Of a stretch of DNA of 64,000 bases, positions 35,613-57,793 are shown piece by piece. Under the pieces are notes generated by a model that worked only from the letters and a program-made list of their open reading frames with translations, was not told the DNA's origin and made no database searches. Made by a program: the position numbers and the translations under genes. How positions within the stretch are numbered: the stretch's first letter is position 1; each line of letters starts with the position of its first letter. Source of the DNA: an uncultured Actinomycetes bacterium. GTDB taxonomy: Bacteria > Actinomycetota > UBA4738 > HRBIN12. The stretch lies in the NCBI GenBank assembly GCA_963697875.1, contig OY969099.1, positions 2,793,234 to 2,857,233 of the forward strand, written 5' to 3'.

Positions 35613-35643
35613 GGAGCAACGCTATGCCCTGTTCCACGAGGCG

Positions 35644-43520: not shown

Positions 43521-44060
43521 CTAGGTCCGCAGAATGAGCCGCCCAGGCGGCGCAAGCCTCGCTACTGTCGTGCCCGGGATCAGCGCGAGCGTGCCAACCG
43601 CCGCGGCGAGACGGCCGGGACCGATCCAACCGGGTCGCTCGGACGTGGTGCGACGTACGAAACGCACCAATCGGAGACGCATCACGACATGCGTGAAGAA
43701 GTAGAGCGACAGCCCGCCACACAACGTCACGGCCGGGACGGTCGCCAGCGGGTCGCGGACATCGTGCATCGCGATCTTCAAGCCCAGCGCGAACAGGACG
43801 ATCCCCGCGATCATCGGCATGTGCAGGTAGCTGTAATGGTCCCGAGAGAGGCGCGCACGGGTCACGCCGCTCGTCTCCGATAGCTGGCGTTCGGCCAGCA
43901 CGGCGTAGACGTCGAAGTACGCCCACCAGAGCGCGGCGCTCACGGCGAGACCGAGGACCGCGTAAGGACGATAAAGGAGCTGTGCGAGGCCGACCTTGCG
44001 CCGAAGACGTAGACCGGTCGTCGACGCCCGCACCTGAATCCCCTCTCTCAGCGGAGCCAC
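43521..44060 (-). pseudogene. truncated low-temperature-requirement A (LtrA)-family membrane protein gene; only the C-terminal roughly 180-aa half is present
   Basis: WWAYFDVYAV...RDHYSYLHMPMIAGIVLFALGLK resembles the LtrA C-terminal half. No room for the N-terminal half exists before the tRNA remnant and the epimerase gene. Confidence 0.4.
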
Positions 44061-44141: not shown

Positions 44142-45086
44142 TCATTCGCCGCGAAACCAGGTGACCGTGCGGCGGATCCCCTCGCGGATCGGGACGCGGG
44201 GCTCGTAGCCGAGGAGCTCCCCGGCGAGCGAGATGTCGGCCTCCGAGCGCAGGATGTCGCCCTCGCGGGGCGGCGTGAACCTCGGATCCGGGGAGGCCCC
44301 GCACTCGCCCGCGATCAGCTCGAGCAGCGCCTTCACCGAGGTCGGTGTGGCGCCCCCGCCGACGTTGAAGGCCCGTCCGAACGCTTGCTCGTCCGCGCGG
44401 ATCGCGAGCAGGTTCGCGTCGACGACGTCGTCGACGTACGTGAAGTCGCGCGACTGCGACCCGTCGCCGTGGATCACCGGCCGTTCGCTCGTCAGACAGG
44501 CCACGATGAACCGCGGGACCACGGCGGCATACTCGCTCGCCGGGTCCTGCCCCGGCCCGTAGACGTTGAAGTAGCGCAGCGAGATCGTCGGGACGCGGTA
44601 GGCGGTCCACGCGGTCATCGCGTACAGCTCGGCCGACGCCTTGGCCGCCGCGTACGGCGAGCGCGGCAACACCGGCATCGTCTCCCGCAGCGGGAACTCG
44701 TCCTGATCGCCGTAGACCGAGGAGGACGACGCCTCTACCACGACGGCGCCCGCGTCGCGCGCCGCGAGCATCACGTTGAGGCTTCCGCGCAGGTTCACGT
44801 CGGTGACGAGGCCCGGTTCGCGGATCGAGAAGGGGACCGAGCGTATCGCAGCCTGGTGCAGGATCGCGTCGCAGCCGCGCGCGGCGTCGGCGACCGCCGC
44901 CTCGTCGCGCACGTCCGCTTCGACGAACCGGACCTCCGGCACGTCCCGGAGCGCCTCGAGTGATCCGGCGGACAGGTCGTCGAGGCCCACCACCTGCACG
45001 CCGTCGGCGACCAGACGGCGGCACAGGTGGGCGCCGACGAACCCGGCCGCCCCCGTCACCAGCATCCGTCGCACGTCTCGATCCAT
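44142..45086 (-). CDS. NAD-dependent sugar epimerase/dehydratase (UDP-glucose 4-epimerase family)
   Basis: MLVTGAAGFVGAHLCRRL is a Rossmann GxxGxxG. SSSSVYGD is present. YAAAKAS is the catalytic YxxxK. The start is Met 91 of track ORF 44142..45356. Confidence 0.85.
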   Translation of the reverse strand: MDRDVRRMLVTGAAGFVGAHLCRRLVADGVQVVGLDDLSAGSLEALRDVPEVRFVEADVRDEAAVADAARGCDAILHQAAIRSVPFSIREPGLVTDVNLRGSLNVMLAARDAGAVVVEASSSSVYGDQDEFPLRETMPVLPRSPYAAAKASAELYAMTAWTAYRVPTISLRYFNVYGPGQDPASEYAAVVPRFIVACLTSERPVIHGDGSQSRDFTYVDDVVDANLLAIRADEQAFGRAFNVGGGATPTSVKALLELIAGECGASPDPRFTPPREGDILRSEADISLAGELLGYEPRVPIREGIRRTVTWFRGE

Positions 45087-45217
45087 CAGCCGTTGCACCG
45101 TAGCCGCCGCGAACCGGAAGCGTAGAGAGAACACCGCATGCGGCGTATGCCCTCCGACGCCCCCCTCCGTACGATCGGAGGCACCAGGATCCGCATCCGG
45201 GACCAGGAGGTCTTCGC

Positions 45218-45745
45218 GTGCCGACCGAGACCGAGACCGAGACCGAGCATCGAGGCATCGATCGTCGTCAACTCCTGAAGCGGGCTGCCGCCGCGGGCGT
45301 CGTCGTATGGACCGTGCCTGCCGTCCAGACGCTGAACATGCCGGCGGCGCTCGCACAGGTCGGCTCGCCGGGCGAGACCTGTTACACGATCAAGATCCTC
45401 TCGAACTCCAGCTGCAGCTCCCCGAACGCGAACGAGAACGTGGCGTCCACGCTGAAGTGCCTCTACGCCTTCGACCCGGACCTGATCCTCCGCAACACGG
45501 GGATCGGGTGCCAGTTCGCGAAGCTCGTGTCGACCGACGTCGACGAGCTCGGGACCTGGCAGGTCAACCTCGAGCCCGGCTGTCGTCTCATTGCCGGGTT
45601 CGCGCGCTCGGGCACCGGTCAGGGTACGTGCATCCAGGCGTCCGATGCCGGCGGCGACCCGGTCGGAGAGGGCGCGACCGGTTCGATCTTCTTCCGCGGG
45701 CAGCCCGTGAACCATGTCGAGATAACGTTCTGCTGCAAGCCGTGA
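45218..45745 (+). CDS. Tat-signal secreted Cys-containing protein (paralog A)
   Basis: GGAGG lies 7 nt before GTG 45218. The N-terminus is MPTETETETEHRGIDRRQLLKRAAAAGVVVWTVPAVQTLNMPAALAQ, with a twin-arginine RRQLLK, an h-region and AxA. The mature region begins VGSPGETCY... and has about seven Cys. It is homologous to the 46950..47435 product. Confidence 0.6.
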   Translation: MPTETETETEHRGIDRRQLLKRAAAAGVVVWTVPAVQTLNMPAALAQVGSPGETCYTIKILSNSSCSSPNANENVASTLKCLYAFDPDLILRNTGIGCQFAKLVSTDVDELGTWQVNLEPGCRLIAGFARSGTGQGTCIQASDAGGDPVGEGATGSIFFRGQPVNHVEITFCCKP

Positions 45746-45752
45746 GCGCAGG

Positions 45753-46004
45753 TCACCACACGAGCCCTCGCTCGACGTCGTCCAGCATCACGATCGCGGC
45801 CCGGTAGCGCCTCAGCAGGTCGTCGCGGTCCTGGTCGCCGATCGCCCTGAGCTCGTCCTCGGAGCATTCGGACACGATGTCTGCGGCGACGACGAGCTCG
45901 TCCCGGACCCGCCCTGCGATCGCGCGCGCCTGCACCGCAGCGGTCACGGCGCGCGCCACGGTCCTAGGCCCGCGTTCGGTTGCGTTGCCGATCGCAGCGT
46001 TCAC
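45753..46004 (-). CDS. small protein (83 aa), translationally coupled downstream of the HprK-like kinase (possible PqqD/RRE-like partner; unverified)
   Basis: ATG 46004 overlaps the kinase stop (ATGA). GC3 is high. No motif is recognised. Confidence 0.4.
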   Translation of the reverse strand: MNAAIGNATERGPRTVARAVTAAVQARAIAGRVRDELVVAADIVSECSEDELRAIGDQDRDDLLRRYRAAIVMLDDVERGLVW

Positions 46005-46873
46005 GTCGATCCGCCTCCCATCAGGTCCTCGATCAGCCGGACGGCGGCATCGAGGTTACCCACCGTCAGCCGATAGCACGCCGCGCCGCGCAGCACGCCC
46101 GCGAGGCGCTCCACGCCGCGGCCGCCGACGACCTCCAGGTTGAACGTTTGCTCCAGCAGGAGCGACAGCATCTCCGCCCGCGACACCGCGCGGAGCTCCG
46201 TGGGGGACCCCTCCTCGAACCGCGGCGCGATGATGTACCGAAGCTCGCACGGCTCGCCCAGGCACCCTGGGCGAAGCGCGCCCGGTGGGATCAGGAAGTC
46301 GAGGTTCCGCACGCGCTCGGCCCACCCGGGCAAGGACGCCCGGAGATCGGGGAACAATGCCATCGAGTCGGGCGCGAGGAGCAGCGGCCGGGTGAACGGA
46401 TACACGAGACCGTCTTGGAGCCCGATCAGCGCGGACTCGTCCGACAGGAATTCGAACCCCGTGCGGACGAGTCCTATCGTGGTCGTCGTCTTGCCGTGAT
46501 CCGGCGGCGCCGGCAGCGCAACCCCCACGCCACCCTTGCTCACGACGCCGGCGTGCACCGCGACGTGAGTAGCCACGCGCATCAATGAGGCGCGAGCGAC
46601 GTCCGCGATGACCCAGGTGAGCATCGTGCCGGGCGGGTTGCCTCGTTGCACCGACCTCCCGTTCATGAGGAGTTCGGGCTGGCCGTTCTGACCGGTGCCC
46701 AGCACTTCGTAGGTGGTGCGATGGGCAGGCGTCACGCGGGGATCGACCCAATCCGCGAACAGCGACGCCGCGGCCTCCGCTACATCGCGCGAGTCGGTGG
46801 TGACGACGAAACGGAATCCAGCCACGTGGAACGACATCGTCGACGCGACGGAACCTGGCGCCGACACGCTCAC
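46001..46873 (-). CDS. HprK-related serine kinase (HPr kinase/phosphorylase C-terminal-domain-like P-loop protein)
   Basis: THVAVHAGVVSKGGVGVALPAPPDHGKTTTTIGLVRTGFEFLSDE is an HprK-type P-loop (GxxGxGKS/T-like PDHGKTTTT) with downstream conserved blocks. The N-terminal HPr-binding domain is absent. Confidence 0.65.
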   Translation of the reverse strand: MSVSAPGSVASTMSFHVAGFRFVVTTDSRDVAEAAASLFADWVDPRVTPAHRTTYEVLGTGQNGQPELLMNGRSVQRGNPPGTMLTWVIADVARASLMRVATHVAVHAGVVSKGGVGVALPAPPDHGKTTTTIGLVRTGFEFLSDESALIGLQDGLVYPFTRPLLLAPDSMALFPDLRASLPGWAERVRNLDFLIPPGALRPGCLGEPCELRYIIAPRFEEGSPTELRAVSRAEMLSLLLEQTFNLEVVGGRGVERLAGVLRGAACYRLTVGNLDAAVRLIEDLMGGGST

Positions 46874-46949
46874 GACGAGCCTCCTCCGGCGCGCCGATGC
46901 CTGGTCCGGTCCGGACCGGGCATCGCGGAGAACGGCCGCGCGACCGCCC

Positions 46950-47435
46950 CTACGGGCAGTTCGCGCGCGGCGGCGAGGTGTTTACCGGCCGACCGGGCCT
47001 TCCGATCGTCACCTGGCAGTTCTCGGTACCCGAGCAGTAGAGGAAGTTCGTGAAGGGCCCCCGCTGGTAGGCGGGGAGCGCCGGATTGTGGCCTGCCCCG
47101 TTGGAGGAGTTGTACCCGCTCTGCCACTTGCACCAGTTCTCGCAGTCGTCCGCCGTGTTCTGACCGGGGTCGACGAAGGCGTCGGGTTGGCCGTAGTTCT
47201 TGACGATGTTCCCGCTGCCATCCGGCGTGTAGCAGTAGCAGGCGGAGCACTCGCCCGGGCTCGGGCCGTAGGCCGCGGCCGCTTTCATCCCGACGGTCTG
47301 GATCGTCGGGGCCGCCCAGAGCAGAGCTCCGCCCACGATCGCGGAGCGCCGCAGCAGGTCGCGTCGCGACATCCCGATCTCGGACTCCACGTCGATCGAA
47401 CGCTTCTTGGGCTCGAGCTCGTCGTCCACGGTCAC
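46950..47435 (-). CDS. Tat-signal secreted Cys-rich protein (paralog B)
   Basis: ...MSRRDLLRRSAIVGGALLWAAPTIQTVGMKAAAAYGPSPGECSACYCY... is a twin-arginine motif with signal region and an N-terminus homologous to paralog A. The mature part has about nine Cys. The start is GTG 47435 or ATG 47372. Confidence 0.6.
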   Translation of the reverse strand: MTVDDELEPKKRSIDVESEIGMSRRDLLRRSAIVGGALLWAAPTIQTVGMKAAAAYGPSPGECSACYCYTPDGSGNIVKNYGQPDAFVDPGQNTADDCENWCKWQSGYNSSNGAGHNPALPAYQRGPFTNFLYCSGTENCQVTIGRPGRPVNTSPPRANCP

Positions 47436-47549: not shown

Positions 47550-48716
47550 TCACGGCCGCGCCGCCTCGATCGCCCGCCCCACACGGTCGACGTCTTCGAC
47601 CGCCATGCCGTTCCACAACGGCAACGTGAGGGCCTGCCGCGCGGCCCGTTCGGTCTCGGGCAGGTCCGCGACGTGACCGTTCAGGTGCGCGTACGCCTTC
47701 ATCCGGTGCACCGGCGGGTGGTAGTAGCGGCGCGTCTCGATCCCCCAGGCGGCGAGCGCCGCCGCCAGCGCGTCGGCGTCGATCCCGAAGCGGTCCGGGT
47801 CGATCAAGACGGTGAGGTCCTTATAGGTGCTTCGATCGCCGTCGGGCACGACCGGGAACCGGATCCCGCCGATCCCGCCGAGGCGCTCGCGGTACCGGCC
47901 GGCGATCGCGTTGCGCTCGTCCAGCCGCTCGTCCAGGTCCTCGAACGAGGCGAGGGCCACCGCGGCGTGGAGCTCGGAGAGACGCGCGTTCAGCCCCACG
48001 AACAGGCAGTCGTAGTCGCCGGGGTTGCCGTAGTCCCGGGCGATGCGCAGGCGCTCGGCGAGCAGGTCGTCGTCGGTCGAGACCAACCCGCCCTCGGCGG
48101 CCACGAGCACCTTCGTCGGGGACATGCTGAAGACCTCGGCGTCGCCGAGCCCGCCGACCCGGACGCCGCCGGACGAGGACCCGAACGCGTGGGCGGCGTC
48201 GAAGAACAGGCGCAGGCCGTTCACGCCGGCGAGCGCCCGGAGCGCGTCGACGTCGCACGGCGTGCCGTAGACGTGCGTCGCGAGGATCGCCGCGGTGCGG
48301 GCACCGAGGACGCGGTCGACGGCCTCCGGGCTGAGGGTGAGCGTGTCGGGGTCGACGTCGGCGAACACGGGCCGCAGGCCGTTCCACGCCACCGCGTGGG
48401 CCGTGGCCGCGAACGTGAACGACGGCACGATCACGTCGCCGTCGAGCTCGGCGCACCGGAGCACGAGCATCAACCCGGCCGTGCAGGACGAGACCGCGAC
48501 CACGTGCCGGACCCCCAGGTACGCCGCGGCGGCCGCCTCGAGCCGCCGGACCGTGGGGCCGTTCGTCAGGACCCCGCTCCGCAGGATCGTCTCGACCTCG
48601 GCCGCGACGCGCGCGGGGTCGGCGAGGCGGGGGCGCGCGAGCGGCAGCGGTGTGGCCGGACCGAGCGCCGGGATGGACCGACGCGCCTGGGTGGCGTCGA
48701 GCGGGTGGGTACTCAT
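47550..48716 (-). CDS. DegT/DnrJ/EryC1/StrS-family sugar aminotransferase (PLP-dependent)
   Basis: The start is MSTHPLD (ATG 48716). ...GVLTNGPTVRRLEAAAAAYLGVRHVVAVSSCTAGL...VIVPSFTFAATAHAV...FSMSPTKVL carries the PLP-Lys motif. Confidence 0.85.
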   Translation of the reverse strand: MSTHPLDATQARRSIPALGPATPLPLARPRLADPARVAAEVETILRSGVLTNGPTVRRLEAAAAAYLGVRHVVAVSSCTAGLMLVLRCAELDGDVIVPSFTFAATAHAVAWNGLRPVFADVDPDTLTLSPEAVDRVLGARTAAILATHVYGTPCDVDALRALAGVNGLRLFFDAAHAFGSSSGGVRVGGLGDAEVFSMSPTKVLVAAEGGLVSTDDDLLAERLRIARDYGNPGDYDCLFVGLNARLSELHAAVALASFEDLDERLDERNAIAGRYRERLGGIGGIRFPVVPDGDRSTYKDLTVLIDPDRFGIDADALAAALAAWGIETRRYYHPPVHRMKAYAHLNGHVADLPETERAARQALTLPLWNGMAVEDVDRVGRAIEAARP

Positions 48717-49675
48717 CGGGGCTCCTCTCGTGGACGCGGGATCGGGCGGGCGGCCGTCAGCAGCCAACCGGTGCACGCGACGCCCGCGCCGGCCGCCGCG
48801 GCGAGGGCCGACGCCGGCTGGAGCCGGGCGACCGCCTGCGCACCGAGCGCGAGGAGCGCGCCGCAGGCCCAGCAGGCGAGCGTCGAGGCTGTCCGGCTCC
48901 CGAGCGCCTCGGCCAGCCGGTCGTACGCGTGCTCGCGGTCGCCGAGGACGGCCGGAGCCGACGACCACCGCCGCCGGACCACCGTGGACGCCAGCTCGAC
49001 GAGGAAGAAGCCGAGGCACACCGCCGCCGCGAACAGGCCCGGCCAGTCGGTCGCCGCGGTGGCCGAGGCGACCACCAGGAGCACGCCGAGTGCGTAGGCG
49101 CCTCCGTCTCCGAGGAACGCGCGCGCCGGAGGGCGGTTCCACGCCAAGAACCCGAGCGCCGCGCCGGCGGTTGCTGTGGCCACCGCCGTCGACATTCCGG
49201 CCGCGGCCGCGACCCCGGCGAGGCCGGCCGCAGCGAACGCTCCCAGCCCGGTCGCCAACCCGTCCTGACCGTCGACCATGTTCACCGCGTTGCAGGCGGC
49301 GACGGTCGCGATCACGACCGCGACGCCACCGAGCGGGCCGAGCGGCGCGAACGTGAGGCCGCCGGCCGCGAGGCACACCCCCGCGAGCACCTGCGCGGCG
49401 AGCCGGATCCACGGCGAGATCGGACGGATGTCGTCCACCAAGCCGGCGGCGAGCGCCACGACCACGGCGACCACGAACCACATCCGGCGCTCGCCGCCGA
49501 GCCACGGCCACGCGCCGGCCAGCGCGCCGGCCGCGACCGCCGCCCCGGCGAGCGCCACGGGCCTCGCGTGCAGCTTCAGCGCGCCCGGCCGATCCACCAG
49601 ACCGAGCCGCGGCCCGACGCGGACGAGCACCGCCGTCCCGACCAGCGAGACGGCGAGCGCGATCACGAACGGCAC
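48713..49675 (-). CDS. polyprenyl-phosphate N-acetylhexosamine-1-phosphate transferase (WecA/TagO/MraY GT4-PNPT family); initiating transferase
   Basis: Ten TM helices are present. DDIRPISPWIRL is a motif of the family. NAVNMVDGQDGLA is the NxxNxxDGxDGL active site. The stop overlaps the aminotransferase start. Confidence 0.85.
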   Translation of the reverse strand: MPFVIALAVSLVGTAVLVRVGPRLGLVDRPGALKLHARPVALAGAAVAAGALAGAWPWLGGERRMWFVVAVVVALAAGLVDDIRPISPWIRLAAQVLAGVCLAAGGLTFAPLGPLGGVAVVIATVAACNAVNMVDGQDGLATGLGAFAAAGLAGVAAAAGMSTAVATATAGAALGFLAWNRPPARAFLGDGGAYALGVLLVVASATAATDWPGLFAAAVCLGFFLVELASTVVRRRWSSAPAVLGDREHAYDRLAEALGSRTASTLACWACGALLALGAQAVARLQPASALAAAAGAGVACTGWLLTAARPIPRPREEPR

Positions 49676-51423
49676 GACGCCACCCAGACGGTGCTCTCGA
49701 CGCCGTCGTGCACGGCGATCGTGCCGACCCGCTCGAACCCGAGCGCGGCGTAGAAGGCGTTCGCCCCGTCGTTGTCGGCGCCGACGACCGCCTTGCAGCG
49801 ATCGGCCCCGCGACGCGCCAGGCCTGACAGGACCGCCCCCGCGAGGGCGCGGCCGGCCCCGGTCCCCCGGGCCCGCTCGTCGACCGCGATCGCCAGCAGC
49901 TCCGCGTCGGGAAGGTCGGCGCGCCGGCCGGGGTAGCGGGCGGTCTCGCCGGCGCGTGCGCGGACCGACGCATCCCGAAGGCGCGGCGCGGCCGCGAGGG
50001 CCGCCCGGACGCCCCGCCGGAACGCGAACCGACGGTAGAAGGCGCCGAGCGATGGCACGCCGGACGCGAACCCCAGCACCTCACCCCCCCGCTCGGCGAC
50101 GAACACCGTGGCGGCGCGATCGCCGATCAGCCCGGCGTGCAGCTGCGTGAGGAACCGCGCCCCGAGCCAGGGCAGGAACGCCGTGGGCATCGTCGCGATG
50201 TGCAGCCGCGCGATCGCCCGGGCGTCCGATCGCCGCGCCGGCCGTACGACCGTCGCGTCCCGGTTCCCCCGGACGATCCCCCTGGCTCGCAGCAGGCGCT
50301 CGGTGACGCCGACAACCGTGGCGACCACCCGCTCCTGGTCGAACTCGGCCTCGGCCCGGCGCCTCGCGGCCGCGCCCATCCTCCGTCGCAGTGCGCCGTC
50401 CTCCAGGACCCGGACGAGCGCCGAGGCCAGCGCGCCCGCGTCGCGGACCGGCACGAGCAGCCCCTGCACGCCGTCGGTCACGACCTCCCGGCAGCCGCGG
50501 ATGTCGGTGAGCACGAGCGGAAGCCCGCTCGCCGCGGCCTCGATCGCCGAGCGCGGCATCCCCTCGCGCCACGACGGCAGCGCGAACACGTCCATCACGG
50601 CCATCAGCTCGGCCACGTCCTCGCGCCACCCCGTGAACACCACGTCCTTGCTCGCCGCCTCGATCTCGGCGGCCTCGATCGCGTCGGGCTTATCCGGGTC
50701 ACCCTGCCCGACCACGAGGAACCGCGCCGCGGGCACCCGCGCCCGGACCCGACGCGCCGCCTCGAACAGCTCGAGGAAGCCCTTCTCGCGAACCATCCTC
50801 CCGACGGTCCCGACGACCAGCTCGTCCTCGCCGATCCCGAGCTCGGCGCGGAGCTTCCGCGCCGCCTCCGAGCCGGCGCGCTCGGGCGCGAACCGCGCCA
50901 CGTCGATCCCGTTGCCCAGCTGGATCGCCCTGCCGCGGCGGACGACCCGCAGGCGTCGCGCCCACGCGAGGTCCTCTCCCGACTGGTACAGCTCGAGGTC
51001 CGAGCAGCGGGATGCGAGCGCCTCCACCGCCAGGACCGGCCCGCGCTTCCCGAGCCGGTCCTCCGGCGTCGCCCAGAGCCCGTGGACCGTGTTCAGCACG
51101 ACCGGCACGCCGAGCAGGCGGGCGGCCACGCGCCCCATCGCGCCGGGCTTCGGGTTGTGCGTGTGGACGGCGTTGAACCGCTCGCGCCGGAGGATCCGGA
51201 CCAGCTCGCGGAGGGCCCGCACGTCCGCCCGCGGGTTCCACGCCCGCGTCACGGTCGTCCACGCCACGTACCGGATCCCCTCGGCCTCGACGTCGCCGAC
51301 CCACGGGCCCGGCGCGCCGATCGCCGTCACGTCGTGCCCCTTCTCGCGGAGCCCCACGAGCTGCGGCAGCAGCAGGAACCGGTGCGTCAGGTCGACCGTG
51401 GCCACGTGTGCGATCTTCGCCAT
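49663..51423 (-). CDS. bifunctional glycosyltransferase family 4 with a C-terminal GNAT N-acetyltransferase domain
   Basis: The start is MAKIAHVATVD (ATG 51423). The GT4 domain is ...GRMVREKGFLELFEAA...FALPSWREGMPRSAIEAAASGLPLVLTDIRGCREVV.... The reading frame then continues uninterrupted into the GNAT fold ...VFVAERGGEVLGFASGV...LLAIAVDERARGTGAGRALAGAV...GANAFYAALGFERVG. Confidence 0.75.
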   Translation of the reverse strand: MAKIAHVATVDLTHRFLLLPQLVGLREKGHDVTAIGAPGPWVGDVEAEGIRYVAWTTVTRAWNPRADVRALRELVRILRRERFNAVHTHNPKPGAMGRVAARLLGVPVVLNTVHGLWATPEDRLGKRGPVLAVEALASRCSDLELYQSGEDLAWARRLRVVRRGRAIQLGNGIDVARFAPERAGSEAARKLRAELGIGEDELVVGTVGRMVREKGFLELFEAARRVRARVPAARFLVVGQGDPDKPDAIEAAEIEAASKDVVFTGWREDVAELMAVMDVFALPSWREGMPRSAIEAAASGLPLVLTDIRGCREVVTDGVQGLLVPVRDAGALASALVRVLEDGALRRRMGAAARRRAEAEFDQERVVATVVGVTERLLRARGIVRGNRDATVVRPARRSDARAIARLHIATMPTAFLPWLGARFLTQLHAGLIGDRAATVFVAERGGEVLGFASGVPSLGAFYRRFAFRRGVRAALAAAPRLRDASVRARAGETARYPGRRADLPDAELLAIAVDERARGTGAGRALAGAVLSGLARRGADRCKAVVGADNDGANAFYAALGFERVGTIAVHDGVESTVWVASCRS

Positions 51424-52169
51424 CAGCCCTTCCCCCACGGTCCCCGTCCGAGCGCGCGGTAGACCCACGCCTCGGTGTCCAGCTGCCCGGCCGCCTTCCG
51501 CCGGAAGAAGAAGTCCCCGTCGGAGCGCAGCACCGGCACCCGCCCCAGCCGGTACCGGTCGGTTCGGCCGGCGCGGTTCGTCCGCCACGCGTCCCGGGCG
51601 GCCGAGACGAACAGCCGCCGCGCAGCGCGGTCGGCGGCGGCCCCGCCGACGGCCCAGGGGTACGCGAAGTGCCGGCACGCCGCGCCGAGCCGGTCCTCGA
51701 TCAGGTCCCGGGACCGCCGCATCTCCGCGTCCGCCTGTTCCTCGCTCACGTCCGCGAGGTTCGCGTGCGAATGGGTGTGCGACCCGACCTCCACGAGCCC
51801 GCTCGCGACGCACTCCCCCAGCTGCCGCCACGTCAGCCCGTCGCCGCCGACCCCGCCGGTGGCGAGGTACAGCAGCGCCGGTACCCGGTGCCGCTCCAGC
51901 AACGGCAGCGCGCGCTCGGCGAAGTCGGGCGTCCCGTCGTCGAACGTGACCACCACTCCGCCGCGGCCGGCGAGCGCCTCGTCCAGCGTGATCGCGTGTG
52001 GCGCCACGTGCGCGAGCTGCCGGTCGAGCACGTCCTCGGGCAGCTCGATCTCCGAGGTCCCGTCGCCGACCCGGTGGTACAGCAGGATCACGACGTCGTC
52101 CGCCGCGCGCCGACCGGGCAGCCCGAACGGCAGCACCGCCGCCTTCGAGAGGGTCCGGACCGCGCTCAC
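51423..52169 (-). CDS. polysaccharide deacetylase (NodB/CE4 family)
   Basis: GTG 52169 overlaps the upstream stop (GTGA). ...VVILLYHRV..., ...VVVTFDDGTPD... (the DD metal motif) and ...GSHTHSH... are CE4 blocks. Confidence 0.7.
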   Translation of the reverse strand: MSAVRTLSKAAVLPFGLPGRRAADDVVILLYHRVGDGTSEIELPEDVLDRQLAHVAPHAITLDEALAGRGGVVVTFDDGTPDFAERALPLLERHRVPALLYLATGGVGGDGLTWRQLGECVASGLVEVGSHTHSHANLADVSEEQADAEMRRSRDLIEDRLGAACRHFAYPWAVGGAAADRAARRLFVSAARDAWRTNRAGRTDRYRLGRVPVLRSDGDFFFRRKAAGQLDTEAWVYRALGRGPWGKG

Positions 52170-53221
52170 TCCCACCCGTCCTCGCGCCGCGGCACGAGCG
52201 CCGTCCCGAACAGTGCGGCCACGACCAGCACCACGGCCGGCGTGTGCAGCACGTAATCGACGCAGGCGTGCGCCCCGACAACCGCGACCGCCGCCGCGCC
52301 GAGCGCGGTCACCGCGTCGGGGCGAGGCACGGCCAGGAGCCGTACGAAGGCCCACCCGAAGACCGCGACCATCAGGAGCAGGCCCAGGACGCCGAGCTCC
52401 GCGCCGCGCTCGAGGAACTCGTGGTGCGCCTGGAACGCGTCGCGGTCCGAGCGGGCCGTCGGGCTCACCCGGGCGAACGTCCCGAGCCCGTTGCCGCGCG
52501 GCTCGGCCGTCGTCGCGTCCCACGCGTCGTGCCACAGGGCCAGTCGGCGTTCGGTGAGCCCCGCGTCCACCAGGCGTTCGGCGACCCCGGTCGGGCCGGC
52601 CGTGGGGTCGTACGTAGCCGCGAGCCAAACCGTCGCCGAAAGCGAGACCACGAACACGGCGGCCATCGCCGCGATCGCTACGCGCGAGGCCCGCGGACCC
52701 ACGAGCGCGATCGCGAGCGCCACGAACGCCAGCCCGACCACCGCCGCCGCCTCGGCGCTTCGGACCGCGACCGCCGAGGGCGCCAGCGCCACGGCGACCG
52801 TCACCACGATCGCCGGCCACCGCCGGAGCGCGCCGCCCGTCATCAGCCACGCAACCGCGGCCGCCGCCAGGAACGCCCCGCTCGCGTTCCGGTAGCCGAA
52901 CGGTCCGCCGAGCGGCCCGGTCGTCAGGTCGAGCCGCCATCGCCACGCGAACCAGGTCGCGCCCACCGCGACGACGGCCGGCACCAGCGCCCGGTGCGTC
53001 CGCGCGCCGACAACCGCCGAGACGACGACCACCCCGGCGACGGCGCCGAGCAGCGCCACGAACGACCCCGCGTCGGTCCCGGTGCGGAGCCCCACGAGCA
53101 GGGCCACGAGCGCCAGCGCGCCCACCAGCACGAGGCCGGCCACGTCCAGCCCCGGCCGGAGCTCCTCGTGGACCCGCGTCGTGACGACGGCCCGGTCACG
53201 CCAGCGGCTCAGCGCCTGCAT
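52166..53221 (-). CDS. O-antigen ligase/polymerase-like (Wzy_C domain) polytopic membrane protein
   Basis: About ten TM helices are present, with a large loop containing ...RNGLGTFARVSPT...AHHEFLERGAELGVLGLLLMVAVFG, which is Wzy_C-like. Confidence 0.6.
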   Translation of the reverse strand: MQALSRWRDRAVVTTRVHEELRPGLDVAGLVLVGALALVALLVGLRTGTDAGSFVALLGAVAGVVVVSAVVGARTHRALVPAVVAVGATWFAWRWRLDLTTGPLGGPFGYRNASGAFLAAAAVAWLMTGGALRRWPAIVVTVAVALAPSAVAVRSAEAAAVVGLAFVALAIALVGPRASRVAIAAMAAVFVVSLSATVWLAATYDPTAGPTGVAERLVDAGLTERRLALWHDAWDATTAEPRGNGLGTFARVSPTARSDRDAFQAHHEFLERGAELGVLGLLLMVAVFGWAFVRLLAVPRPDAVTALGAAAVAVVGAHACVDYVLHTPAVVLVVAALFGTALVPRREDGWE

Positions 53222-54569
53222 GCTCCACCTCCCGTACCTCGGGGTGCCGCTCCCACCACACGGGCGTGGGAACCGCCAGCAGCACCAGGAAGAACGGCAG
53301 CACCTGCGAGCGCTGCCGCGCGAGGATCCCGAAGTTCGCGATGCTCGAGAACCCGAACACGAACACCGCCACGAACACGATCGCCACGGCCACGTAGGGC
53401 TGCCGGCGGATCGACGTCGCGGCCTCCCAGATCCACCGCCACCGCCAGACCGACCACGCGAGCAGCGCCGTCCCCTCGAGCGCCGCGAGGAACCCCTGGA
53501 CGTTCTTCGCCTCCGGAAGCAGCGGCCGGAAGAGCACCGTCACAGCCGCGAGCGGCGCGCGCGTGGGGCTGTCGAGCACCGACGCCTGGAACGACGAGCC
53601 GCCCTGCTGGGTGCGGAACTCCGTGTTCTGCAGCGTCGCGCTCACGCCGCCCTCGTCGTTCACCCCCGCCTGCGCCAGGAAGTCGTTCGTCATCCGGACG
53701 AGGAAGAGCGTCCCGACCGCGAGCGCCGCGAGCACGGCGACCTTCGCGAGGAGCCCGACCTCGCGGTGCTCGGGCCGCGTCGGCCGCACCACGTACCCGG
53801 CCACCGTCGCGATCGCGACCATCGCCGCGATATGGGGCCGGACGACCGCGAGCGCCGCCACGCCCAGCACCACCGGCAACGCGGCGCCCCTGATCCCGGT
53901 CGTCAACAGCCGCGCGATGCCGAACGCCGCGAGCCCCAGCCCGAAGAGCATCCATGCCTCCTTGCCGACGCTCGACGGCCAGAACAGCAGCGACGGCATG
54001 AAGAAGACGAGCCGCGCGTACGTGCGACGGCGGCCCTCCGGGACCGCGATCGCGAACGCCCGATAGAAGAGGAAGAGGCCCCAGAACGCGATCCACGAGA
54101 AGACGAGGAAGGCCCCGACCTGGGTCGGCCACGTGAACGAGTAGACGACCCCCGTCAGGAGACCGGGGAACCCGGTCCCGGTGACGCTGCCCGTCATCGT
54201 GAAGTCGAGGCGATGGAACCGCGCCGCGAACGACGTGCCTTCCTGCAGGTACCGCGCCGCGTCGGCCACCCCCCCGTAGACGCCGAACGCGACGTAGTAG
54301 CGGGCGAGCGATGCGCCGAGCTTCAGCAGCAGGGCCCAGACCAGGATCGTGAACACGCGCGGCTCGTCCTCGCGTGCCGCCTGGCGCCGGAGCGCCGGCA
54401 GCGACACGAGGATCAGGACCGGCGCCACGAGCACCGCGCCCCACGTGTCGTACGTGGACCGATCCATAAGGAGCAAGAGCCAGGCGCTGAGCCCGGCGAG
54501 GAGCGCGAGCCACAGCAGCCCGAGGGGCTGCGTCCGGATCAGGAGTCTGCGGTCGGCAGTGGTCGCCAC
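53196..54569 (-). CDS. polytopic membrane protein (12 or more TM helices), candidate glycan polymerase or flippase
   Basis: The hydrophobicity pattern shows 12 or more TM helices. No soluble catalytic motif is present. The gene sits inside the glycan cluster and overlaps both neighbours. Confidence 0.5.
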   Translation of the reverse strand: MATTADRRLLIRTQPLGLLWLALLAGLSAWLLLLMDRSTYDTWGAVLVAPVLILVSLPALRRQAAREDEPRVFTILVWALLLKLGASLARYYVAFGVYGGVADAARYLQEGTSFAARFHRLDFTMTGSVTGTGFPGLLTGVVYSFTWPTQVGAFLVFSWIAFWGLFLFYRAFAIAVPEGRRRTYARLVFFMPSLLFWPSSVGKEAWMLFGLGLAAFGIARLLTTGIRGAALPVVLGVAALAVVRPHIAAMVAIATVAGYVVRPTRPEHREVGLLAKVAVLAALAVGTLFLVRMTNDFLAQAGVNDEGGVSATLQNTEFRTQQGGSSFQASVLDSPTRAPLAAVTVLFRPLLPEAKNVQGFLAALEGTALLAWSVWRWRWIWEAATSIRRQPYVAVAIVFVAVFVFGFSSIANFGILARQRSQVLPFFLVLLAVPTPVWWERHPEVREVEHAGAEPLA

Positions 54570-54570
54570 C

Positions 54571-55587
54571 TCAGAACACCTCCAGGTCCCCGAGCGCGAG
54601 CGCCCACGACGACGCGCGCAGCGGATCGACCGGGATCGGGCGGAGCGGGTTTGCCACGAGGGTCAGCCCCTCCGGCGACGGCAGGAACCCGGCCCGGCGC
54701 ACTGCGCGACGAGCCTCGGACCCGGGCGGGAAGCTGCACGTGACGTGGTCGGCCGCCGCCGCCCCGACGGCCGCGCGCAACGCTCCGCGCACCGACCGCA
54801 CGTCGCCCGGCGCCGCGAAGACTTCCGCCACCGTCGTCTCCCAGAGCCGCCCGCGCGGCCGAACGCGGAAGATCGCGATCGCGTCCGGGCGTGACCGGTT
54901 GCCCAGTGCGACCGCCCGGTAGTCCAGGAGCGGTGCCTCCCCGTACCGCCACCGGAGGTACTCGACGGAGCGGTCCGTCACGAGCCGCCCGGCCTCAGCC
55001 GCGGGGAGCAGCGGCGCCACGGCGTCGCCGTCGGCGAGCAGGGAGCCGGCCGGCGGTGCGGACACCGTCGGCGCGGTGCCCGCGTCGGCGTGCAGCTCGT
55101 CACGCGACCGCATCCCTCTCGCGAAGCGGAGCGGCCGGCGGATCCGGACCTCGATCGGCACGTCGGCGATCCGCCGCCATCCCATCTTCAGGTAGCCGGC
55201 GAGGCTCTGGTCGTTCGGCGTGTTGAAGACCAGGTCGGTGTCCGCGCGGAGCTCGTCGACCGCCGAGAGCGTCAACCGCCGAAAGATCCCCTGCCCCTGG
55301 TAATCGGGGTGCGTCGCGGTATCGACGGCCCGCACCGCCGAGACCGGCTTCCCGTCCACGAGGAACCGCCACCGCATGAAGGTCCGGAACCCGACGACGC
55401 GGTCGCCGTGCTCGGCCAGGATCGCGAACGACCGACCGAACGGGTTCGACGCGTGCTTCCACCGGAAGAACGCCGGCGAGCGGCTGCCGGCCGGGCCGCC
55501 GCCGAGCGACGCGTCGAGCAGCCCGAGAACCGCCGCCTCGTCCTCGTCGCGGTAGGGCCGCACGTCCAATGCGATCCGAAGGCTCAT
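54571..55587 (-). CDS. GNAT-family acetyltransferase (FemAB-like double-GNAT possible)
   Basis: ...FAILAEHGDRVVGFRTFMRW..AVDTATHPDYQGQGIFRRLTLSAVDE... is a GNAT core. The protein is about 338 aa, allowing two GNAT-like halves. Confidence 0.6.
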   Translation of the reverse strand: MSLRIALDVRPYRDEDEAAVLGLLDASLGGGPAGSRSPAFFRWKHASNPFGRSFAILAEHGDRVVGFRTFMRWRFLVDGKPVSAVRAVDTATHPDYQGQGIFRRLTLSAVDELRADTDLVFNTPNDQSLAGYLKMGWRRIADVPIEVRIRRPLRFARGMRSRDELHADAGTAPTVSAPPAGSLLADGDAVAPLLPAAEAGRLVTDRSVEYLRWRYGEAPLLDYRAVALGNRSRPDAIAIFRVRPRGRLWETTVAEVFAAPGDVRSVRGALRAAVGAAAADHVTCSFPPGSEARRAVRRAGFLPSPEGLTLVANPLRPIPVDPLRASSWALALGDLEVF

Positions 55588-56690
55588 GCCAGCACCTCTC
55601 CGTACACCTGCTCGATCCGTCGGACGGCGACGCGGATGTCGAACTCGGCGGCACGCGCGCGGCCCGCCTCGCCGAGATGGGCGCGGAGCGCGGGGTCGTC
55701 CAGCAGCCGGACGATCGCGGCCGCGAGCGCCCGATCGTCGGCCGGCGGCACGACCAGTCCCTCACGGTCGTCCCGTACGACCTCGCCGAGCCCGCCGACG
55801 TCGGGCACCACCGCCGGCCGGCCGAGTGCGAGCGCCTCGATCAGCGCGATCGAGAGCCCCTCGTGCTCGGAGGACAACGCGAACACGTCGAACGCCGCGG
55901 CCAGCCGCTGCGCGTCCTGGCGGAACCCCAGGAACAGCACCGTCCCGTCGAGACCCATCCGTGTCGACATGTGCCGCAGCTCGTCCTCGAGCTGCCCAGA
56001 CCCGACGAGGAGGAACCGGACGTCGGGGTACTCGGCGCGGACGATCGTCGCCGCGTGGAGCAGCCGGTCGATGCGCTTGTGCTCCTTCAGGTTCGCGACG
56101 GTCCCGACGATCGGCGCGCCGGCCGGGATCGCGAGCTCCTCGCGGACCCCGTCGGCTTCGCCCTGCCCGCGGACGGCCTCCAGGTCGATCCCGTGGTAGC
56201 GCGTCTCGACCGGCGGCCTCGGCAGGGCCCGCAGCGCACCGGGGAGGACGATCGAGTCCCGGACGTGATCGGAGACGGCGAGCACACGGTCGCTCCGCCA
56301 AAAGGTGAGCGCGTTCGCCCAATACGTGGCCGGGTGGTAGCGCTCCCACACGTTGTGCTCGGTGTAGACGCGTCGCGGCCGGGCACCCCAGCAGGCGAGC
56401 CGCGCCCCGACCGCCGGCACCGGTGACTGCGCGTGGATCAGGTCGATCCGCTGCTCGCGGACGAGCGACCGCAGACGCGGCACCCACCCGATCCCACGCC
56501 CGCCCTGCAGGCAATGCACCGGTACGCCCTGGTCCGCGATCTCCTTCACGAAGGCGTCCTTCCACGGCAGGAGGTAGGCGACCTCGTAGTCGAATCGGGT
56601 CCGGTCGAGGTGCGGGATTGAGCTGGCGAGGATCTGCTCCGCTCCTCCCCGGCCGAGGCCCTTGATGAGGAGGAGGACTCGATGCCTCAT
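55584..56690 (-). CDS. glycosyltransferase family 4
   Basis: The start is MRHRVLLLIKGLGRGGAEQ (ATG 56690, overlapping the upstream stop as ATGA). ...FALSSEHEGLSIALIEALALGRPAVVPDVGGLGEVV... is the EX7E region. Confidence 0.8.
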   Translation of the reverse strand: MRHRVLLLIKGLGRGGAEQILASSIPHLDRTRFDYEVAYLLPWKDAFVKEIADQGVPVHCLQGGRGIGWVPRLRSLVREQRIDLIHAQSPVPAVGARLACWGARPRRVYTEHNVWERYHPATYWANALTFWRSDRVLAVSDHVRDSIVLPGALRALPRPPVETRYHGIDLEAVRGQGEADGVREELAIPAGAPIVGTVANLKEHKRIDRLLHAATIVRAEYPDVRFLLVGSGQLEDELRHMSTRMGLDGTVLFLGFRQDAQRLAAAFDVFALSSEHEGLSIALIEALALGRPAVVPDVGGLGEVVRDDREGLVVPPADDRALAAAIVRLLDDPALRAHLGEAGRARAAEFDIRVAVRRIEQVYGEVLA

Positions 56691-57793
56691 CGTCCCGCGG
56701 CGACCTCCTCGTAGACCGCCAGGTACCGGGCGGCGATCGCCCTGATGTCGAACGCGCTCGCGTGCGCCGGCGCCTCGGCACGGATCCGCGCCACGAGGTC
56801 CCGGTCGTCGAGCAGTCGGCCGGCGGCATCGGTGAGCGCGTCGACGTCGCCGTGCGTCACGAGCAGGCCGCTTCGACACGGGCAGACGACCTCCCCGATC
56901 CCGGCCACGTCGTAGCCGGCAAGGGGGAGTCCGAGCATGGCCGCTTCGATAGCTACGGCCGGCATCCCCTCCATCCCGTCCGGCCGGCTCGCGAACAGCA
57001 GGACGTCGCTCGCCGCGATCAGGTCGCCGACGTCCCGGCGTGATCCGAGGATCCGCGTCACCTGCGGATCGGCCGAGATGAGCACCTCGCCACGCTTCGG
57101 CCCGTCGCCGGCCATCAGATGGACCAGGCCGGGTCGCGTCGCCGCCAACCGCCGCGCGACCTCCACGTGAACCAGCGGATCCTTCTCCCAGCTCAGCGCG
57201 CCGATCGAGAGCACGACCGGGACCTCCGGATCGATCCCGAGCGCCGAACGGACCTCCTCCCGGGAGCGCCGCGGCGCGATCCGAGCGCGATCCACGCCGT
57301 TCGGAATCGTGACGACCTTCTCCGGCTCCAGCCCGAACTCCTCGATCGTCTCCTCGCGGAGCCGGTCGGCGACGGCGACGACCCGTGCGGCGCGTCGCAT
57401 CACCCTCCTGTAGAGGCCGCGGAGAACTCGGCTGCCGAGCTGCGGAGGTGATCCGCCTATCCGCCGATAAACGATCCGCGTTCCTCGTGAAGCTATCGAG
57501 GAGTACTTCAGGGCTTCACCCCCGTGCGCCTGGATCACGTCTGGCTCGAGCTCGGCCACGAGCGACCGAAGCCGAACCCCGGGGGTCTGAAGTGCCGCAC
57601 GCGACACCTTCGCCGGCATCACCTGGTGGGTGGGCGCTTCGAACGAGAGCTCCTGTGGACCCGATCGGAGAATAGCGACCGCCTGCTGTCCTCCGCCCCG
57701 CGCGATCTCGCCGACCAGGTCGGCCGCGAATACCTCGGCGCCGCGACGTCGTCCCGACGCTACGACGTGGAGCACGCGCCCCTGATCATTCAT
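56687..57793 (-). CDS. glycosyltransferase family 4
   Basis: MNDQGRVLHVVASGRRRGAEV... and ...LFASRPDGMEGMPAVAIEAAMLGLPLAGYDVAGIGEVV... are GT4 patterns. Confidence 0.8.
   Translation of the reverse strand: MNDQGRVLHVVASGRRRGAEVFAADLVGEIARGGGQQAVAILRSGPQELSFEAPTHQVMPAKVSRAALQTPGVRLRSLVAELEPDVIQAHGGEALKYSSIASRGTRIVYRRIGGSPPQLGSRVLRGLYRRVMRRAARVVAVADRLREETIEEFGLEPEKVVTIPNGVDRARIAPRRSREEVRSALGIDPEVPVVLSIGALSWEKDPLVHVEVARRLAATRPGLVHLMAGDGPKRGEVLISADPQVTRILGSRRDVGDLIAASDVLLFASRPDGMEGMPAVAIEAAMLGLPLAGYDVAGIGEVVCPCRSGLLVTHGDVDALTDAAGRLLDDRDLVARIRAEAPAHASAFDIRAIAARYLAVYEEVAAGR

Follow-up and report, generated by a model that had tools for sequence, protein, structure and literature searches.

The 64-kb stretch of DNA analyzed here (the window) contains a small gene module that suggests an undescribed system, in which a kinase modifies leader-tagged, Cys-rich proteins before their export. 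In our best reading the core unit consists of a kinase with the PEPCK/HprK fold and one or more leader-bearing Cys-rich proteins, joined in a subset of loci by a coupled protein of ~85 amino acids. We propose, tentatively and with a little less than even confidence, that a cytoplasmic kinase, guided by the leader, modifies proteins exported by Tat and that, in the subfamily of the window, the module was recruited into a sulfated-glycan cluster. Literature searches returned no description of a kinase/leader-protein module and nothing on "HprK-related kinase".

ORF calling recovered all four genes that an earlier note on this DNA had listed, with the same coordinates and strands (Table 1). They encode a Tat-A-type protein, a small protein, the kinase, and a Tat-B-type protein; the public gene call starts Tat-B 6 nt later, giving 159 amino acids. 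Third-position GC of the four ORFs is 0.81-0.89 (0.89 in Tat-B), a level shared with other genes in this genome, whose GC content is 70%, and each of the four proteins (Tat-A, small ORF, kinase, and Tat-B) has homologs elsewhere. A GGAGG-type ribosome-binding site can be read upstream of the kinase, Tat-A, and Tat-B starts, with the site GGAGGAGG ahead of the GTG start of the kinase. The Tat-A gene converges on the small ORF and diverges from the gene of the epimerase. Between its stop (45745) and the stop codon of the small ORF (45753-45755) lie 7 nt, one fewer than the 8 bp first given. The GTG start of the small ORF overlaps the kinase stop by 4 bp, and the overlap, originally read as ATGA, is GTGA (tcac on the plus strand at 46001-46004). 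This overlap suggests translational coupling of these two genes. Tat-B does not overlap the kinase gene and is separated from it by a 76-nt spacer. Scanning the region for promoters, terminators, and Rfam families gave no matches.

Table 1. Genes and leader segments of the module, with the two flanking genes (positions in the window)
Feature	Positions	Strand	Length or extent	Basis
NAD-dependent sugar epimerase/dehydratase	44142-45098 (start approximate)	-		PF01370 E 7.7e-62
Tat-A-type protein	45218-45745	+	175 aa	ORF call
Tat-A leader	45218-45355	+	residues 1-46	alignment
Small ORF	45753-46004	-	83 aa	ORF call
Kinase	46001-46873	-	290 aa	ORF call
Tat-B-type protein	46950-47435	-	161 aa	ORF call
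Tat-B leader	47271-47435	-	residues 1-55	alignment
DegT/DnrJ/EryC1-type sugar aminotransferase	47550-48716	-		PF01041 E 1.2e-99; TIGR04427-like, 322 bits

In a confident predicted model, the kinase is a cytoplasmic two-domain P-loop kinase with the PEPCK/HprK fold. Its best HMM match in NCBIfam/Pfam profile searches is TIGR04352, HprK-related kinase A (116.1 bits, E 1.5e-33), which falls short of the curated cutoff (200) and spans only profile positions 92-280 of 280; the protein is therefore a relative, not a member, of that family. Several kinase homologs have weak matches to PF27840 (ScmC). The kinase had been described as HprK-related and distinct from the PTS HprK/P, and the scores agree, with only 15.1 bits for TIGR00679 (cutoff 240) and 13.2 bits for PF07475 (cutoff 33.3). 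We rejected an ordinary bifunctional HprK/P that has HPr as its partner on the basis of these scores and because no HPr was detected in the window, where tblastn with the HPr sequences of B. subtilis and E. coli found nothing better than E 0.9 in the 64 kb. No PTS genes were present in Pfam scans of ~50 window ORFs. The N-domain of the model resembles that of PEPCK and differs from the MurE/F-like N-domain of the HprK/P of PTS/carbon catabolite control, and a winged-helix RRE is not apparent in the model. ATP-dependent PEP carboxykinase is a structural neighbor only (10-13% identity), is twice the size of the kinase, and has no detectable HMM relationship with it.

The catalytic residues are conserved. 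H107, K128, D145, and E146 are invariant among the kinase homologs, and H107, G127-K128-T130, and D145-E146 align with HprK residues in 1ko7 and 2qmh. Relative to HprK, the second Asp of the Asp-Asp pair is replaced by Glu and the P-loop is atypical (APPDHGKT versus GxxGxGK[ST]). The lasso-precursor kinases PadeK, ThcoK, and PsmK need a His-Lys-Asp-Asp set (PMC9266682), of which the kinase has invariant His, Lys, and Asp and, in the fourth position, an invariant Glu (PadeK and PsmK were compared by description only). Invariance at these four positions favors phosphotransfer over mere binding. The PEPCK-like two-domain cleft seen in the model could equally well bind a small molecule.

Tat-A and Tat-B had been called paralogs, which is true of their leaders only. 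BLASTP confirms the similarity of the leaders (E = 3e-11, 33% identity), and the strings quoted for it and the SPGE(T/C)C motif are present. The similarity is restricted to the N-terminal ~60-110 residues; the bodies belong to unrelated families. The Tat-B leader comprises an acidic n-region (IDVESEIG), the segment MSRRDLLRR, an h-region (SAIVGGALLWAAPTIQT), and a c-region (VGMKAAAA). That of Tat-A reads GIDRRQLLKRAAAAGVVVWTVPAVQTLNMPAALA and is followed by an invariant VGSPG motif. The consensus is RRxxh[KR]x6Gx3WxxPxhx[S/T], then AxA. An S/T-R-R-x-F-L-K-like Tat motif, a moderately hydrophobic h-region, and AxA can be read in both Tat-B (MSRRDLLRR-SAIVGGALLWAAPTI-...KAAAA) and Tat-A (IDRRQLLKR-AAAAGVVVWTVPAV-...ALA). 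Against the Tat-signal model TIGR01409 (cutoff 16.7), Tat-A scores above the cutoff at 17.4 bits and Tat-B below it at 14.7. Pfam TAT_signal (PF10518) has no match in either protein; a related leader in locus L022 passes it (24.8 bits versus 22.7). We saw no tat genes in the window.

Leaders of this type are conserved far above the proteins that carry them. The Tat-B family has 36 proteins, all without names. Pairwise identity within it averages 0.70 for the leader and 0.30 for the body, and in 406/406 pairs the leader is the more similar of the two. Invariant residues of the Tat-B leader are D13, E17, G19, R22, R23, L26, R27, R28, A30, V32, G33, G34, W38, P41, and A50. The corresponding identities in the Tat-A family (12 proteins) are 0.71 and 0.51. 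At least six unrelated families of Cys-rich bodies share the leader, with the R-R, G, W, P, S/T, and first Cys invariant. Conservation of this kind, across unrelated body families, is what one expects of a recognition sequence and not of an ordinary signal peptide. It resembles the leader/core precursors of RiPPs, in which the leader is likewise better conserved than the core and common to divergent bodies.

The bodies themselves were less informative. That of Tat-B is hypervariable and has eight Cys (CxxCxC...DCxxxC...C...C...C), and that of Tat-A, ~125 amino acids, is conserved, contains Cys, and ends in FCCxP. An AF2 model of Tat-B built from 29 sequences was unusable (pLDDT 52.7), so the predicted structure yields no clue to the body. 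PDB sequence-profile searches with the Tat-A and Tat-B families gave no match, and Pfam found no domains in six other leader-bearing bodies. The window Tat-B ends in ...NCP and Tat-A in ...CCKP; many Tat-B homologs end in C-S or C-T. With their CxxC-type spacing, the Cys-rich bodies may bind metal or need cytoplasmic oxidation.

The pairing of kinase and leader-bearing protein recurs across loci. In the 15 non-redundant loci with readable DNA, 16/16 close-family kinases have a leader-bearing ORF no more than ~600 bp away, and the pairs occur in tandem, divergent, and convergent arrangements. A sixteenth locus outside this count (P0074), available at the protein level only, has a 293 amino acid ORF, a candidate kinase, after a Tat-B-type gene. 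Directly upstream of every kinase of the window subfamily is a Tat-B-type gene, and a Tat-A-type gene adjoins the kinase in L001, L004, L013, L017-L019, L022, and L028. A reverse search of metagenomes in which the Tat-A-type leader alone was the query recovered further kinase-adjacent loci. The neighborhood check proposed in the earlier note thus found the Tat-type proteins conserved with the kinase in other genomes, which leaves the proposed module standing. For some proteins whose leader subtype is more distant (L025 and L026), no kinase lies within 2-4 kb.

Kinase paralogs pair with distinct leader subtypes, that is, kinase and leader have co-diversified. Two kinase paralogs in one genome (L007), 35% identical, flank different leader subtypes, and one of them (L007b) is 69% identical to the kinase of L027, the adjoining leaders being 81% identical. 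Kinase and leader identities correlate over 55 pairs (Pearson r = 0.81), a correlation that is confounded by shared phylogeny.

The 83 amino acid ORF encodes a conserved, predicted helical protein, an accessory component of the module. It has four true homologs (63-87 amino acids, 43-58% identity). In L017-L019 the small ORF comes after the kinase, again with a 4-bp overlap; it is found also in L014, L013, and L022, has a weak match in L007, and is missing from L001, L002, L004, and L008. We rejected a spurious ORF on the basis of homologs with the same length, position, and 4-bp overlap. A PqqD/RRE identity had been put forward for checking, and the ORF has no HMM match to such models (NCBIfam and Pfam, E <= 1); hhalign of its family against a PqqD domain gave a probability of 0.04, and PqqD was rejected. 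A PDB sequence-profile search with the family returned noise only and no relative.

TIGR04352 cassettes include a companion PqqD-family protein. The window kinase, for which this family is the closest HMM match, has no PqqD partner in the window, and PqqD was found only in other loci (L007 and L015). PqqD-domain proteins adjoin more distant kinase relatives and the paralogous L007 module, where the PqqD domain is fused to a ResA/TlpA-like thioredoxin, with a kinase paralog and a Cys-rich protein carrying the leader beside it. This partner of a peptide-binding type counts in favor of the proposed reading. The window module differs from RRE-guided RiPP tailoring in having no recognizable PqqD-like RRE; the L007 module has one. 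To our knowledge, Tat-leader Cys-rich partners are part of neither the TIGR04352 nor the ScmC (PF27840) family definition.

The closest functional parallels are the lasso-peptide kinases PadeK, ThcoK, SyanK, and PsmK, which are likewise HprK-superfamily P-loop kinases encoded beside the gene of a ribosomally made substrate (here putative). They act on the leader-bearing precursor and not on the mature product (PMC9266682, PMC6993621). Unlike a lasso cluster, the window has no cyclase, B1/B2 protease, or RRE; as the earlier note had observed of cyclase and protease, none of the ~50 scanned ORFs encodes a lasso cyclase (Asn-synthase-like C), a B1 or B2 protein, or a PqqD. Lasso substrates are peptides of ~40 amino acids, whereas the putative substrates here are Cys-rich proteins of 110-290 amino acids with a twin-arginine leader. 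Lasso kinases target a C-terminal Ser, and the window Tat-A and Tat-B both end in Pro.

We infer that the kinase phosphorylates the leader proteins, as follows. The kinase would recognize the conserved leader in the cytoplasm and use NTP to place a phosphate on one Ser or Thr in the pre-protein. One candidate site is T47 of Tat-B (T38 of Tat-A), the sole hydroxyl residue that every leader subtype conserves; the other is the Ser of the SPG motif, just past the predicted AxA cleavage site. The folded, modified protein would then be exported, most likely via the Tat pathway. Support comes from the kinase-then-sugar chemistry of PsmK, which phosphorylates its precursor before hexoses are installed on the phosphate (PMC6993621) and so offers a precedent. 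By analogy with pseudomycoidin, the module may represent a new class of leader-guided maturation in which the kinase reads the dedicated twin-arginine leader and phosphorylates Cys-rich pre-proteins in the cytoplasm; in the subfamily embedded in glycan genes, to which the window belongs, the phosphate would become the attachment point of the sulfated glycan of the cluster, and the product would be a Tat-exported phosphoglycosylated glycoprotein. The phosphate-linked hexoses of pseudomycoidin would here have their counterpart on full-size secreted proteins; we think this specific version quite improbable. In a variant of it, the phosphate may act as a leaving group when Ser/Thr is dehydrated and Cys is cross-linked.

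A connection to a glycan is suggested by the surroundings of the module, which, as originally described, lies between the epimerase and DegT aminotransferase genes inside a large glycan cluster. The best NCBIfam match of the epimerase, encoded downstream of the module, is TviC-like (195 bits, under its own cutoff). Our best reading of the cluster is that it makes a Wzy-type sulfated heteropolysaccharide and that the kinase/leader pair was recruited there in the Tat-B subfamily, so that the exported protein is probably tied functionally to the glycan, for instance as its acceptor, primer, anchor, or processing factor. In all 10/10 loci of the window subfamily, the DegT gene is directly upstream of the Tat-B-type gene.

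This strict position after DegT also leaves some room for an account in which the kinase belongs to the glycan pathway itself, phosphorylating a sugar, a nucleotide-sugar precursor, a polyprenol carrier, or the growing glycan, with the Tat-type proteins being extracytoplasmic glycan-binding or glycan-processing proteins merely co-regulated with it. We regard that account as unlikely. Locus L022 has a kinase and the small ORF together with two leader proteins, and no glycan gene lies within 9.4 kb of them; the neighbors encode MarR, a thioesterase, a response regulator, and an Ig/PMP surface protein. The account also leaves the hyper-conservation of the leader and the co-diversification of kinase and leader unexplained, and the detected sequence relatives of the kinase are protein or peptide Ser kinases and uncharacterized PqqD-associated cassette proteins. 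In the characterized relatives, namely HprK/P and the kinases of lasso precursors (PMC9266682), the target is a Ser of a protein or peptide. The earlier note had offered two roles for the kinase, and we favor the first, action on the Tat proteins, since the pairing persists in L022 without glycan genes and across changes in gene order. The second, with a glycan or lipid intermediate as the substrate, loses ground; we retain it for the window subfamily because of the 10/10 loci directly downstream of DegT.

The kinase-like protein might instead be an NTP-binding, signal-peptide-specific chaperone or proofreading factor, perhaps acting with the 83 amino acid protein, that holds the Cys-rich protein until it is folded, oxidized, or metal-loaded and makes no covalent modification. 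TorD, DmsD, and NapD are chaperones that bind particular Tat leaders and are encoded beside the Tat substrate. The likeness is a cytoplasmic partner strictly adjoining a substrate whose leader is conserved above the mature protein, and Tat substrates and their dedicated chaperones are similarly organized. The possible metal binding or oxidation of the CxxC-type bodies and the PqqD-thioredoxin fusion of the paralogous L007 module would also fit. We nevertheless judge a chaperone improbable: TorD, DmsD, and NapD have an unrelated fold, we know of no Tat chaperone with a PEPCK/HprK fold, and the partner here appears to keep a complete kinase active site, its invariant catalytic His, P-loop Lys, and Asp-Glu pair corresponding to HprK and lasso-kinase residues.

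Very unlikely, in our view, is the lack of any specific functional link, with the synteny inherited in a narrow uncultured lineage and the leader being that lineage's usual Tat signal: all loci with the kinase family are from uncultured Actinomycetota, a genome scan found the kinase in only 3 of ~185,000 species-representative genomes, and the identity correlation is confounded as stated above, but adjacency is kept at kinase identities down to ~33-36% despite rearranged gene order and orientation, paralogous modules in one genome retain distinct kinase/leader pairs, and full-length-leader matches with enough flank (L022, L023, L024, L027, and L028) have a kinase next door in 5/5 cases, whereas generic Tat-signal matches without the WxxPxhx[S/T] part have none nearby.

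Among characterized HprK-type kinases outside PTS regulation, we found only lasso-peptide tailoring enzymes in the literature. If modification of the leader proteins by the kinase is true, leader-guided phosphorylation would reach from short peptides to whole secreted proteins, and part of the uncharacterized HprK-related kinase A/ScmC group would gain its first functional context. The twin-arginine leader is portable and hyper-conserved and appears to be read by both a cytoplasmic enzyme and the export machinery, which makes it a concrete route to testing how cytoplasmic modification is coupled to Tat export. The components are small, soluble, and expressible, and the hypothesis is therefore directly testable. 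In uncultured soil Actinomycetota, the presence of the Tat-B subfamily in a sulfated-glycan cluster points to a possible dedicated glycoprotein or to a possible glycan that is primed or anchored by a protein.

The conserved unit is the HprK-related kinase together with Cys-rich proteins that carry a twin-arginine-type leader. We searched six-frame ORFs of all fetched loci with HMMs of the kinase, the two types of leader and the small ORF. A leader-bearing ORF occurs at most ~600 bp from every close-family kinase (16 kinases, from 15 non-redundant loci whose DNA could be read: the window and the related loci L001, L002, L004, L007 with two kinases, L008, L011, L013, L014, L017, L022, L023, L024, L027, and L028), so the proposed conservation of Tat-type proteins with the kinase in other genomes holds. 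The arrangement may be tandem upstream, convergent downstream, or divergent, and L014 has two tandem Tat-B copies. Conversely, a kinase adjoins all 5 full-length matches with usable flank from a leader-only scan; partial matches (generic RR/h-region only) have no adjoining kinase. L007 encodes two kinase paralogs, 35% identical, and the leader subtype beside one differs from that beside the other. The second paralog and the L027 kinase are 69% identical, and their adjoining leaders 81%. Kinase and leader identities correlate (r = 0.81, 55 pairs).

A sixteenth locus, that of P0074, has no DNA to read and is outside this count; there, a 293-aa ORF (putative kinase) follows a Tat-B-type gene. In L013 (8600-10320), frameshifts, probably long-read assembly errors, have fused or interrupted the Tat-B-type gene, kinase and small ORF; therefore the called “293-aa” gene begins with a Tat-B leader. 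Proteins of the “WTAPVIIDS” leader subtype, which adjoins a kinase in L023, are also encoded at L025:1511-2104 and L026:933-1844, with no kinase within 4.2 and 2.6 kb, respectively. L025 neighbors include a MerR/GyrI regulator and an AIR-synthase-like protein. A single kinase may serve dispersed substrates.

The window genome has a GC content of ~70%. The four ORFs of the module lie where the earlier note placed them, and their GC3 of 0.81-0.89 is the codon-position pattern of genuine genes. The kinase, Tat-A and Tat-B genes each have a GGAGG-type ribosome-binding site ahead of the start codon. Some details of that note need correction: the kinase stop and small-ORF start overlap as GTGA, not ATGA; the convergent gap between Tat-A and the small ORF is 7 nt, not 8 bp; and Tat-B is separated from the kinase by a 76-nt spacer, not coupled by overlap. 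The claimed homology of Tat-A and Tat-B is real for the N-terminal region (BLASTP E = 3e-11), to which the similarity is limited.

Features of the window and of the second module in related locus L007
Feature	Position	Strand	Remark
Tat-A	45218-45745	+	175 aa ORF
Small ORF	45753-46004	-	83 aa ORF
Kinase	46001-46873	-	290 aa ORF
Tat-B	46950-47435	-	161 aa ORF
LtrA-like ORF	43521-44060	-	matches profile positions 213-327 of 356 only
Sulfotransferase	60064-61047	-	inside glycan cluster
Sulfatase	34182-35621	-	~10 kb outside glycan cluster
Wzy_C-domain protein and preceding 457-aa polytopic membrane protein	52166-54569	-	latter conserved, without family match
Tat-leader Cys-rich protein	L007:10566-13614		151 aa
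Kinase paralog	L007:10566-13614		282 aa; TIGR04352 97.7 bits
PqqD domain fused to ResA/TlpA-like thioredoxin	L007:10566-13614		255 aa
Degenerate HprK-like protein	L007:10566-13614		274 aa

The module is on the minus strand within a ~20-kb glycan cluster, embedded as first described, with a DegT aminotransferase on one side and an epimerase/dehydratase on the other (gene order: glycan genes, module, epimerase/dehydratase). The cluster encodes several GT1/GT4 glycosyltransferases, a sulfotransferase, GNAT acetyltransferases, a polysaccharide deacetylase, a Wzy_C-domain membrane protein, an unannotated polytopic membrane protein, a GT4-GNAT fusion, and a WecA-like polyprenol-phosphate transferase. 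The rest of the window contains housekeeping genes. ORF family scans and a tRNA search of the window found no PTS genes, PqqD, tRNA genes or lasso cyclase, the last as the earlier note stated. DegT is directly upstream in all 10 window-subfamily loci (Tat-B-type gene plus type-1 kinase) that have upstream sequence, even with a different initiating transferase. This strict embedding suggests a functional tie between the Tat-B subfamily product and that glycan.

GC is uneven at 48000-64000 (0.73-0.78 at 48-56 kb, 0.61-0.63 at 61-64 kb, ~0.70 elsewhere), suggesting that the distal part of the cluster is mosaic or horizontally exchanged. The LtrA-like ORF is probably a truncated gene at the cluster edge. 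Sulfotransferases in the window and related loci (up to four in L008) point to a sulfated glycan. L004 and the P0074 locus also have the pair of Wzy_C protein and 457-aa membrane protein; polymerase, ligase and protein O-oligosaccharyltransferase are all candidate roles for the Wzy_C protein. In L001 (4695-5527), the module is immediately preceded by a fragment of an integrase core (rve) and a DegT remnant of 72 aa. The glycan operon was severed there by an IS insertion that left the module intact.

The best NCBIfam match of the kinase is TIGR04352 (HprK-related kinase A; 116 bits, E 1.5e-33), which falls under the cutoff of 200 and leaves the N-terminal third of the model unmatched. Models of true HprK give it 13-15 bits. 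The protein was thus rejected both as a TIGR04352 member and as HprK/P, in keeping with its initial description as HprK-related and not an ordinary HprK. We found no HPr in the 64-kb window (tblastn with two HPr sequences). The family is rare: a word-indexed search of 5.8 billion proteins gave 38 proteins, all unnamed, and a scan of 185,579 species representatives gave 3 loci, each in a MAG from uncultured Actinomycetota. The AlphaFold2 model (27 sequences) has a pLDDT of 94. H107, G127, K128, T130, D145, and E146 are invariant; in alignments to HprK structures, they occupy the positions of the His, the P-loop and the Asp-Asp pair. An equivalent His-Lys-Asp-Asp set is required by lasso-peptide tailoring kinases (PMC9266682). 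The protein therefore appears to be an active HprK/PEPCK-superfamily phosphotransferase.

The Tat-B and Tat-A families comprise 36 and 12 proteins, respectively, all unnamed; a cluster look-up gave no names. Mean pairwise identity in Tat-B is 70% for the ~45-residue leader versus 30% for the body, and the leader is better conserved in 406 of 406 pairs (Tat-A: leader 71%, body 51%). Tat-B-family bodies range from ~50 to ~110 residues and retain the Cys pattern alone. The leader also occurs on proteins with unrelated bodies, in related loci (L007_151, L008_242) and in the leader-only metagenome scan. Across 18 leaders and at least 6 body families, the common motif is h-x-R-R-x-x-h-[KR]-x6-G-x3-W-x2-P-x-h-x-[S/T], and the first Cys comes 13-25 residues after it. 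By inspection, the leader has Tat-signal features (S/T-R-R-x-x-L-K-like core, Gly/Ala-rich h-region, AxA), and its c-region often has a basic residue. HMM support for a Tat signal in Tat-A and Tat-B is borderline; one related leader passes the Pfam TAT_signal threshold. Judged from these sequences, the leader behaves like a recognition element, unlike an ordinary signal peptide.

The bodies have no Pfam or PDB sequence-profile match, and the Tat-B AF2 model is of low confidence (pLDDT 52.7). In Tat-B-family proteins, the last residue is Ser, Thr or Pro and the one before it Cys (alignments A2, A4); Tat-A-type bodies start C-[YF]-x-[VI] and end F-C-C-x-P (alignment A5). Distant leader-bearing bodies (L025, L026, L028) also have a terminal Cys pair. 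The Cys-paired ends hint at a common disulfide-clamped fold.

The small ORF has no NCBIfam or Pfam family match and no PDB sequence relative. A PqqD/RRE identity was rejected (hhalign probability for PqqD 0.04). It is predicted to be helical. Exhaustive phmmer gave four true homologs (63-87 aa, 43-58% identity). In L017-L019, as in the window, a homolog overlaps the kinase by 4 bp and separates it from a convergent Tat-A-type gene. The family HMM matches after the kinase in L014 and L013, nearby in L022 and weakly in L007, and finds no homolog in L001, L002, L004 or L008. We regard it as a genuine accessory gene.

The second module of L007 adds a peptide-binding PqqD domain and suggests leader-guided thiol/disulfide chemistry on Cys-rich proteins. 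Two loci with distant HprK-like proteins have other arrangements. In L015 (7518-9868), protein P0035 is between two PqqD-domain proteins whose C-terminal halves have an internal Tat-signal-like segment (TIGR01409 20.3 bits, residues 94-125) and then a short low-complexity tail; they are odd fusions of PqqD domain and leader-like segment. In L016 (37-6741), P0036 adjoins a SipW/archaeal-type signal peptidase I and an NTP_transf_5 protein (presumably the family to which Pfam assigns the lasso nucleotidyltransferase PsmN), with a Bac_transf-nucleotidyltransferase fusion and glycosyltransferases. This is a further kinase-plus-glycan association, outside the leader family.

Characterized sequence relatives of the kinase phosphorylate Ser on proteins or leader-bearing peptides. 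Because of this, the recognition-like leader and the PqqD domain of the paralogous module, we tentatively favor a model in which the cytoplasmic kinase would modify the pre-proteins in a leader-dependent manner, and the modified pre-proteins would then be exported via Tat. One candidate acceptor is the S/T after P-x-h-x, the sole hydroxyl residue kept across all leader subtypes; another may be the Ser of the SPG motif that follows the AxA site, a Ser that never varies in Tat-A and is frequent in Tat-B. The earlier note had also proposed a glycan or lipid substrate. The glycan context (10 of 10) and PEPCK-like architecture support this, but it is weakened to an unlikely reading by the leader data and by L022. 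That locus encodes a kinase with two leader proteins and a homolog of the small ORF; the genes around them are for MarR, a thioesterase, a response regulator and a large Ig/PMP surface protein, and none is a glycan gene. A non-covalent, leader-specific chaperone or proofreading NTPase is similarly improbable, as the catalytic residues are invariant. Inherited synteny without function is very improbable, since adjacency persists despite rearrangement and paralogs are paired with distinct leader subtypes. Under leader-dependent phosphorylation, a phospho-linked glycoprotein product is conceivable by analogy, if speculative and rather doubtful, because PsmK phosphorylation is followed by hexose addition onto the phosphate (PMC6993621).

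All module-family proteins are annotated as hypothetical or unnamed, and our literature search found no description of a kinase/leader-protein module. Both the kinase superfamily and the leader-guided phosphorylation of peptides were known before. What is new is that such a kinase is paired with full-size, secreted, Cys-rich proteins bearing a portable twin-arginine leader, that the module has a helical accessory protein, and that it has been recruited into a glycan cluster.
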